From an uncultured virus (IMG/VR IMGVR_UViG_3300044675_001378) (lineage: Duplodnaviria; Heunggongvirae; Uroviricota; Caudoviricetes), in the IMG/VR virus record IMGVR_UViG_3300044675_001378: DNA of 20,000 bases; one strand, 5' to 3'. Positions 2,867-20,000 of the stretch are shown one piece after another. The notes under the pieces are model-generated. The model was not told the origin of the DNA. It saw only the letters and a list, made by a program, of their open reading frames with translations, and made no database searches. Both the position numbers and the translations under genes were made by a program. The number at the start of each line of letters is the position of its first letter. The stretch's first letter is position 1.

Positions 2867-3838
2867 TTATTCGTCATCCCAGTCGGCAACGACATCGGCC
2901 AGCGCTTTCTTGCCGGGCACAGCCGTTGGCTTTGCCGCTGCTGCCTTCTTCACGACTGGCTCTTCGTCTTCCTCGGGCGCTTCGACCACTGGGGCTGGCT
3001 TGGCCTTGGCTTTAGCCTTGGGGGCTGGTGCGGGGGCTTCGTCTTCCTCGGGCTCTTCGACCACTGGTGCGGCCTTGGCCTTCGGCGCTGCACCCTTGAG
3101 CGCATCAGCAGGCTTGCCCATGTCCATACCAGTGGAGTCCATCGTGATGGCTTTCTTGGCTTCGGCGGTGTCGCCCTGCTTGGTGGCTTCAGCGAACTCG
3201 TCATCAGTCAACCAGCGCATGGCCTTGAAGAACAGCTTGGGGGACTCGCTGGCAGTGTCGAACTTCATGCGGGTCACAACAGTGCTCGGGTCAACGCCTT
3301 GGGCCACGAGCCAGCGTGCGTACGCTTGCAGTGGGCGGTTGTCGCCTTCGTCCTTACCGAAGATCGAGGTGGCTGGCAGGGATAACTGCATCACATCGCC
3401 TTCGATGTTGTTGGCCAAGACGACTGCCAAGCGCTGCTGGTAACGGCAAGCGCGGGTATTGCCAGTACCGGAACCGGCCACGTTCTGTGGGCAGGCTGCG
3501 CAGGTGTCGGACTGTTTGTTCTTGCTATTGGAGTCTGGTGTGTCGCCATCGTTGGACTGACAGTCAGGTTTGGCGGCGGTTGCGTCCTTGTCGTACTTGG
3601 CGGCGTAGAACACACGGGCCACTTTCGGTGCGGCCTTGACGATCACCACATCGAGGAAGCGCTCATCGACTGCTGCGATTTCTTTGCCGTCAGAGATCAG
3701 ACGGAACACGCCACCTTTGATCGACACGCGTTTGCCGCTGGCACCACCACCCGCAAGGGCTTTGGCAATGTCAGACATCTCGGCCTTGCGTGCGAAGGCG
3801 GGTACTTGGGCGGGGTTAAACAGAGCTACATTACTCAT
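2867..3838 (-). CDS. Putative ssDNA-binding/recombination protein (323 aa)
   Basis: Beta-rich N-terminal domain with Cys cluster (PDCQSNDG...CAACPQN...RACR), Ala/Pro/Lys/Glu linker and acidic-aromatic tail (VADWDDE) typical of SSBs; located in the replication module. Confidence 0.6.
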   Translation of the reverse strand: MSNVALFNPAQVPAFARKAEMSDIAKALAGGGASGKRVSIKGGVFRLISDGKEIAAVDERFLDVVIVKAAPKVARVFYAAKYDKDATAAKPDCQSNDGDTPDSNSKNKQSDTCAACPQNVAGSGTGNTRACRYQQRLAVVLANNIEGDVMQLSLPATSIFGKDEGDNRPLQAYARWLVAQGVDPSTVVTRMKFDTASESPKLFFKAMRWLTDDEFAEATKQGDTAEAKKAITMDSTGMDMGKPADALKGAAPKAKAAPVVEEPEEDEAPAPAPKAKAKAKPAPVVEAPEEDEEPVVKKAAAAKPTAVPGKKALADVVADWDDE

Positions 3839-14289: not shown

Positions 14290-14317
14290 TGTTTTCTCCT
14301 TGATTGAAATCGGGTAT

Positions 14318-14338
14318 TGTCCACTATTAGACATGTTA
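14318..14338 (-). promoter_or_regulatory. Operator-like inverted repeat (minus TGTCTA-ATAG-TGGACA, 14333-14318) with abutting -10-like TAACAT (14338-14333)
   Basis: Same palindrome and same -10 overlap geometry as 4275..4295; no good -35 box. Confidence 0.5.
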
Positions 14339-14373
14339 GTGTTCACTCTTTTTTGTAAGGGGTTTCCCCCCCC

Positions 14374-14466
14374 TCATAACGGCCTCCAGTAAAGTAAATC
14401 AAGCGCTACTACGATAAGCGCGAGTAGGAACACTACCCGCGTGATGGTGTCTCCTCTGTCAAACAT
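14374..14466 (-). CDS. Small single-pass membrane peptide (30 aa, MFDRGDTITRVVFLLALIVVALDLLYWRPL)
   Basis: Manual translation; strong SD GGAGGAG; hydrophobic core. Confidence 0.6.
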   Translation of the reverse strand: MFDRGDTITRVVFLLALIVVALDLLYWRPL

Positions 14467-15185: not shown

Positions 15186-15428
15186 TTACTTCTCCCATTT
15201 AAGGGTTGTGCCGCTGCCGCTGTAGTTGCAGAGGTCGTAGTTGGTCATGACTAGCTGCGTAAGGGTGTAGGGGTCTATGTCCCGCCCACTCAAATAGTGG
15301 CCCAATAGTATCGAGCCGTTGATGTGTCGGCTCAGGTCAGAGAACATAACCTCCTTCTCGTGTACTTCGGCAACCATGCGCTGCCCATGTTCGTCATACC
15401 CTCGGCCTGTGTTCCATTGATGTTTCAT
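15186..15428 (-). CDS. Hypothetical protein (80 aa)
   Basis: SD AAGGAG directly after the conserved hairpin. Confidence 0.75.
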   Translation of the reverse strand: MKHQWNTGRGYDEHGQRMVAEVHEKEVMFSDLSRHINGSILLGHYLSGRDIDPYTLTQLVMTNYDLCNYSGSGTTLKWEK

Positions 15429-15440
15429 TTACTTCTCCTT

Positions 15441-15473
15441 AAAGCGCAGCCTGAGTCGGCAGGCTGCAAACCG
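15441..15473 (-). repeat. Conserved intergenic hairpin, copy 1
   Basis: Minus strand CGGTTT-GCAGCCTG-CCGACT-CAGGCTGC-GCTTT. Confidence 0.7.
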
Positions 15474-15504
15474 TTTCCAACGGTGCAAACCGAAATGACA
15501 CCCG

Positions 15505-16611
15505 TCAGACTTCGCAGTGAACTGTGTCGAACAGAGACAGCAACACAGTATCGGCATCGTAGACAGCGCAGTCAGACATCGCACGCTGCAACACCTCGTC
15601 AGTGAGCATGCGCTTGTTGAGGAACTTGAGCGCCATCATGGGGTCTTCTGGGTACGCCGCCTCTGCGATCATGTCGAGCAGGTCGTGATACATCCCACGC
15701 ATGGCATCGCGCAGTGCGTCCTCCAGCATGTCGTTGTCCGTGTACCCGTAGGCGCTGGCGTCAGACCACTTGCCGTCCCATGAAGTCAGGCTGGTCGTGC
15801 TGTAGTAACTCTTCCAGTCCATCAGGGGCAGCTTCTCGATGACTGTCGGGTCACGCCCCACGGGCAGGGCATCCCACTTGATCTTGACGGCCGCAGCAGC
15901 CAGCGCTGTGAAGTGGAAGATGTCCAGAGTCTCGCGGTCTGAGTGCTCGTTGTCGTAGCCCACGCTGATGTTGGTGCATTCGGGGATGATGTCAACGAAC
16001 TCGGCAGTGTCGGTGTACACACCTGTGTCATCGCCCAGATACATCAGCACGCCGTCAGCACACAGCTCACCGGACAGTGCGTCAGCGAACTCATCAGAGC
16101 AGCACCTGCCCCACCCCTGATGCGTGATAACGCTGTCGATGCCGCGCCTGTCGAACGCAATGGCACGATCAAAGCAGGCCAGCAACTCGGGGCTGTGGTC
16201 GGCAAGGTACTTAGCACCGATACCCCCGCGCTCCTCGCCCTGCGTGAAGATGTAGTACGCCGGTACACCAGCATGCAGCATGTGCATCAGCATCGCGCAA
16301 CCCGCACCATCGTCAGCACCAAGGGGCGCACCATCGGCATACCACTTGCCTTGAGTCTTCCTGATCTTGTTGGCACCTGTCTCACGATGCACTGTGTCCA
16401 CATGGGCTACGAACAGCGTGCGGTTGGTGTCGTCGAGTCGTGCGTCTACATGCAGGTTGCCCACCTTGTCATAGCTGACAGCGATGTGCTTGCGCTTGGG
16501 TATGTGTGAGTGCAGCCAGTCCGTGAACTCGATGACTGCGCGTGTGCCGTGTGGCCGCTTCATTGACAGGGCGCGTGATAGCGTCTTGCAGAGTATTGAT
16601 TTCTTGTTCAT
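15505..16611 (-). CDS. M28/M20-clan (MH) zinc-dependent peptidase/amidohydrolase (368 aa)
   Basis: Metal/catalytic motifs in the canonical order: AHVDTV, LGADDGAG, GEERGGIG, AFDRRG, NISVGYDNEH; acidic helical C-terminal extension. Confidence 0.85.
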   Translation of the reverse strand: MNKKSILCKTLSRALSMKRPHGTRAVIEFTDWLHSHIPKRKHIAVSYDKVGNLHVDARLDDTNRTLFVAHVDTVHRETGANKIRKTQGKWYADGAPLGADDGAGCAMLMHMLHAGVPAYYIFTQGEERGGIGAKYLADHSPELLACFDRAIAFDRRGIDSVITHQGWGRCCSDEFADALSGELCADGVLMYLGDDTGVYTDTAEFVDIIPECTNISVGYDNEHSDRETLDIFHFTALAAAAVKIKWDALPVGRDPTVIEKLPLMDWKSYYSTTSLTSWDGKWSDASAYGYTDNDMLEDALRDAMRGMYHDLLDMIAEAAYPEDPMMALKFLNKRMLTDEVLQRAMSDCAVYDADTVLLSLFDTVHCEV

Positions 16612-18065
16612 GTTGATTCCTTGATTGTTACTGTGGTTGGTTCAATGGACAGGCACGCATCCCGTACGGGGCATGGCTCGACTTCTTCTGGCTCGGGTAC
16701 ATAGTCCTCGTGGTACATGTTGCCGTCAATCTCGACAGGTGCATCGTCATCGTACAAGTAGAAGTTGCCCGACCCTTGGCACTCCCATGTCTCGTCAAGC
16801 AGCGCCCACTCGCCATCGTGTAGCTCTACGCAGTTATCGCGCAGTTGGTAGTCGCCCACATGGTCACAGACAATCGCATCGTCATCGCAGTGATACCACT
16901 CGTCACCAACACTGACCGCATCATCCATCGAGCAGTACTCGCCGTTCTCAAGCTCCACGATGCCGTTGTCACTGAGGTAGTCGCGGTCGTAGTAAGTGCC
17001 GTCAACCTCCACGGCGTCATCGTTGGGCACATAGTAGTCGTTGCCCCTGCGCCCAGTGACATGCGTGTACTCGTCGATGCAGCATTCGCCAACGACATGA
17101 TCGTCGTATATACCTGTGCCGCGCTGCTCGTCCTCACTGATGCGCTGGCCACAGTCCGCACAACTGCATGCGTTCTGCTCAGTCGCAGTGCCGTTTTGAT
17201 TACTGCACTGCCAGTCACCACTGCTCGTGATGCGTAGATACTGTCTGTATGTGCCGTCAGGCATGCGCTCGTTCTCAATGTCAACATCCTGCGTCCCGCC
17301 GTCGATGTAAGGAGCGATGAAGTCGCAGTCGCTGTGCCCGCTCTTGATGTACGCCAGCCGCTCCCCCTTCCATTCGTTGCGCTTCTCGTACCCCTGCGAA
17401 TGTAGCCACTGATGCAGCTCGTCATCGGGTTGCGAGTACCGCTCACCATCCTTGTGCCGATAGGTACGCACGAAGTACTTGGGGTTGCTCTCTAGGTTGT
17501 CCCGTTGCATGAGTAGCGCACGACCCACGATCTGATGCCCCAAGCGGCGGGTTGCCACATGCCAGCCGTAGCACGGCGCGTACACCTCGTAGGGATGCGC
17601 CCCGAGTTCATCAAGCTCGTTGCGATCTCCCTCCTCGTTCTCATCGAACTTCATACATGAGGCGGGGCCATGTTGCACAGCACGCACGATGGCCTCAGTG
17701 GTGCGCTCGATGTGAAAGCTAGCCGCTGTAGCGTACTTGGCTACGAAATCCCTTATGTGATGGTCTGCCATGCGCGGCCAGTGTTGCTTGATGTACTTGC
17801 CCAATGATGTCAGCGTCTGCCTGTCGGCCTCGCCTGCTCGCTCGTCCCGTGTGTAGGCAAGGCGGGTCACATCGGTCGTGGCCTCATGCGGCCACTCAAG
17901 CAGCAACTGTTGCCAGTCTTCGGGGTCGTGCATCTGGAACGCATCGGCCACTGCGGGGTGCAGTTCGAATCTGTTTTGCAAACTCTGATGCCACTGGCGC
18001 GAGTAGCGCACAACATCGGCGGCGTACATAAAGCACTTGGCCTTGGGGGAATATCCTAAGAACAT
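16608..18065 (-). CDS. Uncharacterised phage protein (485 aa): N-terminal globular domain, CxxC...CC element, C-terminal acidic tandem repeats
   Basis: SD AAGGAG; ATGA-coupled to the peptidase; motifs GPASCM, GRALL, YFVRTY, PYIDG; repeats DD-A-V-E-V-D-G-x-Y-Y. Confidence 0.85.
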   Translation of the reverse strand: MFLGYSPKAKCFMYAADVVRYSRQWHQSLQNRFELHPAVADAFQMHDPEDWQQLLLEWPHEATTDVTRLAYTRDERAGEADRQTLTSLGKYIKQHWPRMADHHIRDFVAKYATAASFHIERTTEAIVRAVQHGPASCMKFDENEEGDRNELDELGAHPYEVYAPCYGWHVATRRLGHQIVGRALLMQRDNLESNPKYFVRTYRHKDGERYSQPDDELHQWLHSQGYEKRNEWKGERLAYIKSGHSDCDFIAPYIDGGTQDVDIENERMPDGTYRQYLRITSSGDWQCSNQNGTATEQNACSCADCGQRISEDEQRGTGIYDDHVVGECCIDEYTHVTGRRGNDYYVPNDDAVEVDGTYYDRDYLSDNGIVELENGEYCSMDDAVSVGDEWYHCDDDAIVCDHVGDYQLRDNCVELHDGEWALLDETWECQGSGNFYLYDDDAPVEIDGNMYHEDYVPEPEEVEPCPVRDACLSIEPTTVTIKEST

Positions 18066-18093
18066 AAAAACTCCTTGATGTTTTACTTAACTG

Positions 18094-18124
18094 AAAGCGA
18101 GGGTGAGACAGCACCCTCATACTG
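18094..18124 (-). repeat. Conserved intergenic hairpin, copy 2
   Basis: Minus strand CAGTAT-GAGGGTG-CTGTCT-CACCCTC-GCTTT. Confidence 0.6.
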
Positions 18125-18126
18125 TT

Positions 18127-18142
18127 GGGGACAAATGTCCCC
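18127..18142. promoter_or_regulatory. Inverted repeat GGGGACA-AA-TGTCCCC
   Basis: Perfect 7-bp arms with a 2-nt spacer, just after the upstream stop codon. Confidence 0.45.
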
Positions 18143-18144
18143 GT

Positions 18145-18351
18145 CTACTCCTTGCCTATGAGTTCATTGCGAAGCTCGTCCATTTGTGCGAGCACCTGCT
18201 CACGAGTGCCTTTGAACCCCATCTGTTTGAGCATGGAGTAGGCGCTCGGTGAGCGGCTGCGGGACATACCTTTCATCTCCAGCTTGAGCATGGAGCGCAG
18301 TGTGAGTAGTCGAGCGCCCTCGATCTGATTGGGTGTGCTGAGTGTTGTCAT
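18145..18351 (-). CDS. Hypothetical basic protein (68 aa, MTTLSTPNQIE...)
   Basis: ATG at 18351 with SD GGAGG and ATGA overlap. Confidence 0.75.
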   Translation of the reverse strand: MTTLSTPNQIEGARLLTLRSMLKLEMKGMSRSRSPSAYSMLKQMGFKGTREQVLAQMDELRNELIGKE

Positions 18352-18530
18352 TGGCAATCCTCCGGTACTTCATCGCCAAGGCCAAACGCCTCGGCCAACT
18401 CTTGAATGGTCTGGCGGTGTGCGTCCCAGTCGTGGAAACTATCTGGACTGCCCCGCTGCTGGTAGTCCTGCAATGCGCCGCACAGGTCAGCGAGGGCGCA
18501 GCGTGCTGCGAAAGTTTGGTTCTCTGTCAT
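18348..18530 (-). CDS. Hypothetical protein (60 aa)
   Basis: SD AAGGAG; ATGA overlaps at both ends. Confidence 0.7.
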   Translation of the reverse strand: MTENQTFAARCALADLCGALQDYQQRGSPDSFHDWDAHRQTIQELAEAFGLGDEVPEDCQ

Positions 18531-18751
18531 TTGCCTTCTCCTTTGGTTGTCTCCTTCATACGCTCATTGCGGCAGTGCTCCGCGTAGAACTTGAGGAACA
18601 ACATATCGAATGTCGTCAACAACTTCTCTGCGTTCTGCGTGTCGGCCACATAGAACGCTCGGGCGATATGCTCTGCGAAGCTACCTCCCTCACGCTCCAT
18701 GCATCGGGCGGCTTGTAGCCGCATGTCGTGGTCTAAGTGCATTGCTGTCAT
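18527..18751 (-). CDS. Hypothetical protein (74 aa; MEREGGSFAEHIARAFYVADTQN)
   Basis: ATGA overlaps at both ends; SD AAGGA. Confidence 0.75.
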   Translation of the reverse strand: MTAMHLDHDMRLQAARCMEREGGSFAEHIARAFYVADTQNAEKLLTTFDMLFLKFYAEHCRNERMKETTKGEGK

Positions 18752-18993
18752 TTCTTCTTTCCTTTCTTGGTTTCAAAATAGCCGAGCCACTTTGTGCCCT
18801 CGACTTGGGGTTGGTACATCTTGATCTCGTAGTTGTCAGTGTGCGGTACGGGCACGAGGAACAGGTTGTACGGATAGCCGAACCCGTCCATCATCTTGAG
18901 CAGTTCCCGTAGGTCTCGCGTGTCGTTGGTTGTTACCCAGTCCGCTACGCTGGATGCGTAGAAGTGGGCGTTATCTGGCATGTTCTCGTTCAT
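18748..18993 (-). CDS. Hypothetical protein (81 aa)
   Basis: SD AAGGAG; coupled to the downstream gene. Confidence 0.75.
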   Translation of the reverse strand: MNENMPDNAHFYASSVADWVTTNDTRDLRELLKMMDGFGYPYNLFLVPVPHTDNYEIKMYQPQVEGTKWLGYFETKKGKKK

Positions 18994-19010
18994 TTGCTTT
19001 CTCCTTGTGG

Positions 19011-19277
19011 TTAAAGTGTGCAGTACCAGCGATGGGCGCTGATTCGTTTTGTCTTGAGGCGAACGCCTACTGTCTGGCGCAGGTGGCTGTTGAACATCTT
19101 GACCAACACAGACTCAACACCGCCGCTTGGCATGGTGCGTAGCTGATCGCTCTCGATGATGACAAAACCCCGCGCTTTGAGCGTCTCGTACAGGGCCTGC
19201 CAGTCATGCACCACCTTGGTAGGCACCGGGGTAGGTGCGGCGCTGAACGCCGTGTCGGGTATGTCCTCAATCCTCAT
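19011..19277 (-). CDS. Hypothetical protein (88 aa, MRIEDIPDTAF...)
   Basis: Internal ATG at 19277 with ATGA overlap. Confidence 0.7.
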   Translation of the reverse strand: MRIEDIPDTAFSAAPTPVPTKVVHDWQALYETLKARGFVIIESDQLRTMPSGGVESVLVKMFNSHLRQTVGVRLKTKRISAHRWYCTL

Positions 19278-19504
19278 TTGCTTTCTTCTAAGTGTTGCCG
19301 CACTGCGGCGTCTATGACATCCCATGTGATGCCGACATTGCAATCGAACGCACGAGCAACAAGCTCAAGCACCATCACGCAGTCATCCTCTGTGAAGTTC
19401 TCTGTCCCCTCTATTTCGTTGCACTCGATGACATTGACTACATCCTCCACGCTCCAGTCATCACGCAGAACCCACTTTTTGTTTTCTTGAACCATGTGTG
19501 CCAT
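19274..19504 (-). CDS. Hypothetical acidic protein (76 aa, MAHMVQENKKW...)
   Basis: Internal ATG at 19504 with SD AAGGAG. Confidence 0.75.
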   Translation of the reverse strand: MAHMVQENKKWVLRDDWSVEDVVNVIECNEIEGTENFTEDDCVMVLELVARAFDCNVGITWDVIDAAVRQHLEESK

Positions 19505-19515
19505 TTGTCTTCTCC

Positions 19516-19665
19516 TTAGTTGGTTGCGTTTATATCTACAAAACACTCGCTCTCGAATGAGGGGTCTACATCCGCCACTGCGCGGCGCTCCCCGTCCACC
19601 CACAAGTACACCTCGCAGTCAGGCGGCAGGTGCTTTAACTGCTCGATCAGTTCGCTTGTCTTCAT
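19516..19665 (-). CDS. Small hypothetical protein (49 aa, MKTSELIEQLKHLPPDCEVYL...)
   Basis: Manual translation; SD AGGAG; ATGA overlap with the upstream stop. Confidence 0.7.
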   Translation of the reverse strand: MKTSELIEQLKHLPPDCEVYLWVDGERRAVADVDPSFESECFVDINATN

Positions 19666-19922
19666 TTGCTTTCTCCTATTGTGAAACTGTGGATAGGCTC
19701 GGGCAGGTTGTCCACCCAGTCGGCGGGGTATGCGTCCACATGCAGGTCTGTTTCCTCTTTGGCGTGGCCTGAGACTTCACTCCCCGACAAGTTGATGTCG
19801 TAGCCTCCCCAGACCACCCAGTCCTCGACTCCGGCCAGCGTTGTGCCGTAGAAGGCACGATCAGTGGTAAGTCCCAAGCGGTAGCCCTCGCAGAAGGCAC
19901 GCAGTTCGTTCAGTGTTTTCAT
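19662..19922 (-). CDS. Hypothetical acidic protein (86 aa)
   Basis: SD AAGGAG directly after the conserved hairpin. Confidence 0.75.
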   Translation of the reverse strand: MKTLNELRAFCEGYRLGLTTDRAFYGTTLAGVEDWVVWGGYDINLSGSEVSGHAKEETDLHVDAYPADWVDNLPEPIHSFTIGESK

Positions 19923-19935
19923 TTGTCTTCTCCTT

Positions 19936-19969
19936 AAAGTGCGGTCTGAGAACGGCAGACCGCTAACCG
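19936..19969 (-). repeat. Conserved intergenic hairpin, copy 3
   Basis: Minus strand CGGTTA-GCGGTCTG-CCGTTCT-CAGACCGC-ACTTT. Confidence 0.7.
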
Positions 19970-20000
19970 CTTTTTAAACAACTCTCCCATTAGCTTCACA

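Follow-up and report, generated by a model that had tools for sequence, protein, structure and literature searches.

Repeated H-type pseudoknots before early genes of uncultured aquatic phages: candidate roadblocks to RNase E

Three gaps between early genes of an uncultured virus of the Caudoviricetes (IMG/VR record IMGVR_UViG_3300044675_001378; the 20,000-nucleotide [nt] stretch analyzed here is termed the window) each carry an element of about 30 nt that, judging from the base changes among related phages, is almost certainly a compact H-type RNA pseudoknot in the mRNA. The original prediction, made from the window sequence, had described three intergenic hairpins with a conserved loop and conserved flanks, and these hairpins are indeed present on the minus strand (stems 19963-19956/19948-19941, 18118-18112/18105-18099, and 15467-15460/15453-15446). 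The loop and 5' flank are conserved as proposed, but they are kept because they pair with each other, co-varying in five versions, and not because the loop sequence is read. The broader claim of a conserved, structured signal on the mRNA strand in gaps of the early transcript, other than a plain terminator, was borne out. As to function, our analysis tentatively favors, at somewhat less than even confidence, a structure-only roadblock to RNase E scanning that would stabilize the downstream cistrons (a decay insulator).

Related loci were gathered by protein anchors and searched for the core of the window elements (type I) with a pattern that ignored pairing of the 5' flank. Ninety-two distinct type I cores were found, of which 15 without G-U at stem 1/loop 1 were dropped as chance matches and 77 were kept; these are distinct sequences, not independent events. 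In all 77, stem 1 (S1) forms three of three Watson-Crick pairs between the three 5'-flank bases ending at G (CGG or CAG in the window) and the first three bases of the hairpin loop (CCG or CTG), the third pair being invariant and having formed part of the filter. Five versions of stem 1 were observed (CGG/CCG in 62 cores, GGG/CCC in 9, CAG/CTG in 4, and AGG/CCT and TGG/CCA in 1 each), which imply four or more double changes; none of the cores had a break on one side only. Stem 2 (S2; 7 to 8 bp) is 99.7% paired in alignment A3, with 6 of 8 pairs doubly changed, and the covariation score of A3 was reached by none of 500 shuffles. The pair count of A3 contains four stem 1 misses, all in CAG rows, because these rows are shifted one column by their 7-bp stem 2. 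Non-Watson-Crick pairs in stem 2, read on the mRNA strand, comprise 14 G·U versus 1 A·C, and all 168 type I occurrences in the anchored loci lie on the sense strand. The covariation of both stems, the G·U bias, and the sense orientation therefore argue for an H-type pseudoknot in RNA. Its dimensions are 3 to 4 bp for stem 1, 2 to 3 nt for loop 1, 7 to 8 bp for stem 2, 0 to 1 nt for loop 2, and 2 to 5 nt for loop 3, with 10 to 12 stacked pairs; in having loop 1 span stem 2 and loop 3 span stem 1 at these lengths, it presumably resembles the acceptor pseudoknot of turnip yellow mosaic virus (TYMV).

The predicted variation of the stems with retention of pairing held in a scan of the collection that left five stem positions free: all 31 distinct contexts pair at these positions, 30 with Watson-Crick pairs throughout and 1 with a single G·U. 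Control patterns gave no fully paired match, neither among 39 matches to type I variants with another second loop base nor among 34 matches in GTDB. Perfect hairpins of at least 7 bp are not enriched in the window (5 versus 6.7 ± 2.1 in 20 shuffles); the motif stem+TG-C..CT-CA, which was defined after the fact, occurs three times versus a mean of 0.01 in 100 shuffles. A covariance-model search, as the original prediction had suggested, was carried out with A3; in the whole records G003 and G004, its matches were confined to early regions. The Rfam search that it had also suggested (Rfam 15) gave no match at the gathering threshold for five loci with other pseudoknot types and one unrelated chance match for the window at E ≤ 1.

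Several other readings of the same bases were rejected. An extended bulged hairpin (G3-U4 with 3' RY) is pairable in every row, but in the 73 non-CAG rows its changes affect one side only, its two extra pairs exclude stem 1, and types II and III (below) keep the 3' tail without a partner; it is a possible alternative fold only. A fourth stem 1 pair shows no covariation, and the loop does not behave as an anti-Shine-Dalgarno sequence, the first base of loop 3 varying between U, A, and C while the Shine-Dalgarno sequence (SD) is unchanged. The absence of a long U tract after the stem, also part of the original prediction, was confirmed: only copy 2 was flagged as terminator-like, and weakly, among 21 such sites in the window versus 20.7 expected, which sets the elements apart from intrinsic terminators. 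In lambda nut/boxB, a conserved, unpaired, purine-rich loop is read by a protein, together with boxA. The present loop is pyrimidine-rich, paired, and co-varying (boxA was not searched for), and relatives place sequence-dissimilar pseudoknots in the same slot, which argues against the proposed nut/boxB-type loop recognition. N4-type single-stranded DNA (ssDNA) hairpin promoters combine a template-strand hairpin with a virion RNA polymerase. Such a template-strand hairpin, another of the predicted options, is made less likely by the 14:1 excess of G·U over A·C on the sense strand, and no phage RNA polymerase was matched among the large proteins of G004, where divergent enzymes could escape detection and the control of one search gave no signal. 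Processing or stabilizing and translational roles are the live options of the predicted list.

Relatives carry three further, sequence-dissimilar pseudoknot types (II to IV), assigned by eye after the scan, either before the gene for a 485-amino-acid (aa) protein or in other early gaps. Type II has a stem 2 of 7 to 8 bp (100% paired) and a stem 1 of at least 4 bp, with double changes of its own; stem 1 is only 85% paired because three rows stand in a shifted register. Type III includes a swap from CCG/CGG to CGG/CCG (L144 and L288). Type IV (GTG/CAC or CTG/CAG) is found in L198, L205, and L107, where the early region opens with a -10-like hexamer; a hairpin starts just past it, and the pseudoknot comes next. 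A single genome may hold more than one type (e.g., L198, L205, L107, and L139), and anchored relatives without type I often carry another type at the same position. A pattern scan of the collection for type II returned one match, in a contig already in the locus set. In a scan of hairpins irrespective of sequence, 129 on the sense strand had a palindrome upstream and an SD downstream, and 86 of these had a stem 1 partner, versus 157 of 2,087 hairpins on the antisense strand. A classified pseudoknot occurs in 139 of 235 anchored loci (many of which overlap or share a genome), with one to five copies per locus. Across 42 loci, pseudoknots occupy 50 of 267 uncoupled early gaps longer than 20 nt versus 0 of 121 later gaps. 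The carriers of types I to IV form a large clade of uncultured aquatic phages, with the elements before early genes; no credible copy was found in the parts of cultured kin that were covered (Pag-Yong1, 45 of 65 kb; DSL-LC04, 50 of 62 kb; HTVC023P, 20 of 61 kb; CRP-901, 25 of 53 kb).

The pseudoknots are part of a cassette whose usual order is stop codon, palindrome of 15 to 19 nt, A-rich linker of 0 to 14 nt, pseudoknot, spacer, and SD. The 3' end of the pseudoknot lies 16 to 37 nt upstream of the start codon (median, 22; n = 99). The linker on its 5' side measures 2 to 3 nt in 38 of 86 cases and is 57% A and 18% U; the spacer to the SD (about 5 to 24 nt) is 67% A+U. SDs behind pseudoknots are mostly strong (median duplex, -7.3 kcal/mol), some pseudoknot-led genes having a weak SD or none (L145, L146, L175, L220, L248, L281, and L317), and pseudoknot-led genes show no difference from other uncoupled genes in ribosome binding site (RBS) strength (P = 0.46) and local structure (P = 0.31). 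No sigma70 promoter was found at the cassettes; the two promoter-like sites of the window, versus 8.4 expected, lie elsewhere. Among relatives, different genes stand behind identical cassettes, and alignments to 13 related loci often stop at cassette SDs and also at plain SD overlaps without a cassette.

Early regions have up to about seven copies of the palindrome (window 18127-18142; L004 4728-9936; G003 7.7-13.3 kb), with arms that are alike within one phage and different between phages. Outside the cassettes, the palindrome is found by itself immediately behind a promoter-like site in G003 and once within a coding region. Its free central base and symmetric arms suggest a DNA operator; the variability of its arms and spacer points to an RNA hairpin. 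In L105 (1772), L137 (6431), L138 (6920), and L211 (8618), a long plain hairpin stands between palindrome and SD in place of the pseudoknot. Early gaps of L359 (Pag-Yong1; 32000-39800, minus strand) repeatedly have a different palindrome after stop codons, 17 nt long and with a free central base, along with other structured repeats; no pseudoknot was found in those gaps.

All features of the window given here lie on the minus strand. Copy 3 of the pseudoknot (19941-19969) comprises the 5' strand of stem 1 (19969-19967), loop 1 (19966-19964), stem 2 (19963-19956), the 3' strand of stem 1 (19955-19953), a 4-nt loop 3 (19952-19949), and the second strand of stem 2 (19948-19941). It is supported by the covariation of the type I set and scores 45.4 bits with the covariance model, in whose training set it was included. 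On its 5' side lies a linker (19970-19982) that is A/U rich and unpaired in the centroid fold, and no palindrome was found upstream within the window. The original prediction had placed an SD shortly downstream of every copy, which applies to copies 1 and 3 (5 nt past the stem); that of copy 2 is farther away, at about 22 nt. The SD behind copy 3 (AAGGAG, 19930-19935) serves an 86-aa open reading frame (ORF) of no family (19662-19922), the first in a series of small early ORFs that overlap or lie close together. Copy 2 (18099-18124) represents the compensated version of stem 1, with CAG (18124-18122) paired to CTG (18111-18109), a 3-nt loop 1, a 7-bp stem 2 (18118-18112/18105-18099), and a 3-nt loop 3. 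Upstream of it, just past the stop codon of the preceding ORF, is the palindrome, hairpin A (18127-18142; 6-bp arms and a 4-nt center). Downstream are the SD (18071-18076) and the gene of the 485-aa protein (16608-18065), which is clade-wide, is unassigned to a family, and has a pseudoknot in its upstream gap in many relatives; a gene for a 368-aa M28/M20-like peptidase (15505-16611; phrog_4191) overlaps it by 4 nt. Copy 1 (15446-15473) has a stem 1 of 15473-15471 with 15459-15457, a 3-nt loop 1, an 8-bp stem 2 (15467-15460/15453-15446), and a 3-nt loop 3. Two overlapping short hairpins lie on its 5' side (15470-15492), of which 15484-15470 (-5.2 kcal/mol) would sequester stem 1 and 15492-15481 (-3.1 kcal/mol) would free it. 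The SD behind copy 1 (15435-15440) belongs to an 80-aa ORF of no family (15186-15428); in relatives, other genes follow the same cassette.

According to PMC9943677, RNase E scans from 5'-monophosphate ends and passes orthogonal stem-loops, and H-type pseudoknots hinder its scanning in proportion to their stacked length, with composition mattering little. In the gene 32 mRNA of phage T4, described in PMC3014915 as the most stable T4 mRNA, RNase E cuts at -71 next to a pseudoknot at about -67, and the upstream pieces decay fast. We therefore favor the decay-insulator role. On this reading, the element would work by its shape. The long early message would be translationally coupled except in the ribosome-free cassette gaps, where RNase E that scans from a 5'-monophosphate end farther upstream would pass a plain stem-loop but would meet the pseudoknot as a coaxial obstacle and reach the downstream cistrons more slowly. 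The 3' end of the RNA segment before the gap would be guarded by the upstream hairpin, and the cassette would allow chosen downstream blocks (in the window, the 485-aa gene with the peptidase gene and two runs of small genes) to outlast the RNA upstream of them. A pseudoknot selected for a fixed size, with its sequence left free, points to a physical role, and the conservation of the fold rather than the sequence, with five stem 1 versions in type I and three other types, supports a roadblock. As the RBSs that follow pseudoknots are neither weaker nor more folded than other RBSs, nothing indicates that the ribosome requires assistance, and a standby function is less needed. We also count in favor of a roadblock the position of type IV behind a -10-like hexamer, which appears to be the place of a 5'-end stabilizer, and the fact that Proteobacteria are the host of most cultured capsid and terminase kin with a stated host. 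With more reserve, we suggest that the clade as a whole may punctuate its polycistronic early mRNA with a portable decay insulator of hairpin plus pseudoknot, in at least four sequence types, conferring protection from RNase E in cis with no anti-nuclease protein.

A number of points weigh against this role. The host, and hence RNase E, is presumed: the best match of the capsid is recorded from cyanobacterial cultures, and a GTDB search with the 485-aa protein returned no relatives, hence no prophage kin. (Searches of the literature and of helicase homologues for a host gave no lead.) An 11-bp pseudoknot was only a "modest" impediment to RNase E (PMC9943677), and the stability of gene 32 mRNA is partly attributed to translation (PMC3014915). 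Since linkers are often 2 to 3 nt and A rich rather than U rich, a cut right before the pseudoknot cannot be general. Copy 1 may fold less cleanly because the competing upstream hairpin can sequester stem 1. Type I retains invariant bases beyond its pairing, which fit tertiary contacts or a protein, and many relatives do without the element, 11 of the 42 loci having no pseudoknot at all. Finally, every copy lies just before a start codon, in some cases with a weak SD or none, which fits a role with the ribosome. The roadblock and ribosome-loading roles are not mutually exclusive.

Ribosome loading, although rather doubtful, is close behind the decay insulator, because the host and its RNase E are presumed, linkers are often short, and some pseudoknot-led genes lack a good SD. 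In this explanation, the pseudoknot would bind ribosomal protein S1, as a 30S standby site or enhancer, and aid de novo initiation at uncoupled gaps. Its constant position just outside the SD region, its restriction to uncoupled gaps, its retention before genes with weak or absent SDs, and the A/U-rich tract that often precedes the SD in relatives lacking a pseudoknot are all in keeping with this. Protein S1 is reported in PMC7708055 to bind H-type pseudoknots of SELEX (in vitro-selected) RNA, tmRNA, rpsO, preQ1, and tisB, that of tisB being required for standby. The tisB +42 standby element and the others are likewise small H-type pseudoknots in bacterial-type leaders, but the tisB pseudoknot is about 100 nt from a sequestered RBS (PMC7708055), whereas the present RBSs are close and mostly strong, with SDs no more occluded than in genes without a pseudoknot; the closeness to the start codon is imposed by the shortness of the gaps. 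An operator of the T4 gene 32 kind is unlikely: a phage ssDNA/RNA-binding protein would nucleate on the pseudoknot, spread over the A/U-rich spacer to the SD, and in this way shut off several early genes together. The anatomy is that of the gene 32 leader of T4, T2, and RB69, the closest known case, in which an H-type pseudoknot within the intercistronic leader precedes an A/U-rich stretch and the RBS and, in T4, adjoins a 5' end produced by RNase E on a message of unusual stability (PMC3014915); here, too, an A/U-rich path leads from pseudoknot to SD, and the invariant type I bases could serve a protein. However, the gene 32 pseudoknot is single-copy, autoregulatory, and about 67 nt upstream (PMC3014915), whereas the present elements are multi-copy, stand before unrelated early genes with their 3' ends 16 to 37 nt upstream, fall into four sequence types, dissimilar ones of which coexist in one genome, and have an upstream palindrome. 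In the window, G003, and G004, the replication region gave no model match, nor is there a copy before the gene of a 323-aa acidic-tailed protein (2867-3838), the presumed candidate for the ssDNA-binding protein (SSB); no RNA-binding candidate was found, a conserved 274-aa early protein having no family.

Even less probable is an RNA-only antiterminator like put of HK022, or a Rho shield, that would allow host RNA polymerase to continue through the long early-to-replication operon. In agreement with this, the genes form one long operon on the same strand, and no phage RNA polymerase was detected; palindrome and pseudoknot form two structured modules, and structure in ribosome-free gaps would mask Rho loading. 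The put RNA is likewise a cis-acting structured RNA of phage early transcripts, but it consists of two bulged stems in about 70 nt, acts once per early promoter, needs specific bases, and is described with no mention of a pseudoknot (PMC9378689), whereas one to five copies per locus were found here, with linkers of 0 to 14 nt and dissimilar sequences. Least probable, to a degree that makes it very improbable, is an element acting in DNA, whether an ssDNA hairpin promoter or a recombination cassette similar to the promoter early stem-loop (PeSL) cassettes of T4-like phages. The different genes behind identical cassettes, the ends of alignments at cassette SDs, and the operator-like palindrome speak for it, and PeSL cassettes are also repeated stop codon-structure-SD units among variable small early genes (PMC2839356 and PMC4122927); gene swaps nearby may be a further common trait. 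PeSL cassettes, however, have a sigma70 promoter and a terminator stem-loop (PMC2839356 and PMC4122927), whereas the present ones have neither and carry a pseudoknot; breakpoints fall at plain SD overlaps as well, the wobble bias and the uniform sense orientation of type I place the structure on the mRNA strand, and gene shuffling would not select for stem 1. A CRISPR-repeat mimic, ToxI mimic, ribozyme, riboswitch, and attC were also rejected, as there is no Rfam match and no base common to all types and the copies are dispersed, not tandem.

The elements are thus a real, well-supported structure and a multi-copy variant of known leader pseudoknots and, by the tests run, not a gene 32 operator, PeSL, put, nut, terminator, or Rfam family. 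A 2010 review regarded the gene 32 pseudoknot as possibly the sole viral example in translational autoregulation (PMC3014915). Our literature search turned up no account of this element; the readable text and supplements of Fremin et al. 2023 (PMC10690425) contain no match, and the hairpin may be among the 8,495 unnamed candidates, whose alignments are not readable. The obstacles that hinder RNase E in PMC9943677 (the VPK, BWYV, hTR, and SARS-CoV-2 pseudoknots) are similarly H-type, with 10 to 12 coaxial pairs and a sequence-independent effect, but they are heterologous pseudoknots inserted into Escherichia coli reporters, whereas those described here are natural and repeated, with putative activity. 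In this abundant uncultured phage group, a minimal pseudoknot is put to use again and again, and compensatory variants of both its stems occur naturally; whichever mechanism holds, elements of about 30 nt fit published RNase E scanning and S1 toeprint assays directly. They would test whether evolution deploys obstacle-based mRNA protection, so far shown mostly with inserted obstacles. If they are decay insulators, they would be natural, multi-copy, constitutive nuclease roadblocks and a ready library of stabilizers of about 30 nt. The case also illustrates a class of motif that is read as a "conserved loop" by screens for hairpins only.

The window encodes a DNA polymerase A, a PD-(D/E)XK exonuclease, an SNF2 helicase, and the M28-like peptidase, all on the minus strand. 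It has no cultured close relative (closest polymerase match, 31%) and is 99.9% identical to records G001 and G002. G004 and G003 are members of the same clade, whose larger contigs reach about 60 to 68 kb, and their capsid and terminase match Pag-Yong1/MinM2, DSL-LC04, and Pelagibacter phage HTVC023P (63 to 70% and 47 to 52%). The element-bearing stretch is the early region, with its small ORFs. Of 17 adjacent gene pairs listed by hand in the window, 14 overlap or are at most 17 nt apart; copies 1 and 2 are each found in one of the three larger gaps, and a gap at the window edge contains copy 3. A near-identical SD-plus-overlap motif begins most small ORFs between 14749 and 19934, and it is at these junctions that relatives swap genes. 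A 166-nt gap without a pseudoknot (14293-14458, minus strand) contains G-rich hairpins and a GGACA/TGTC repeat that recurs in L005 (5856) and L004 (4417), and is a candidate control region for the replication genes. G004 encodes a polyvalent protein of about 3,100 aa with LPD38 (about 36.8-46.2 kb), whose N-terminal 2,057 aa gave no match in Pfam, PHROGs, or PDB. A conserved early protein of about 250 to 274 aa and no known family (L049 9217-10041 and relatives) is a candidate regulator; in G003, the palindrome lies directly behind the promoter-like site of its gene. In L004 (6145-6540) and L005 (529-930), the conserved early gene of about 250 aa is preceded by an origin-like stretch in which AGTGAGAT-type boxes are repeated around a TATATA-rich palindrome.

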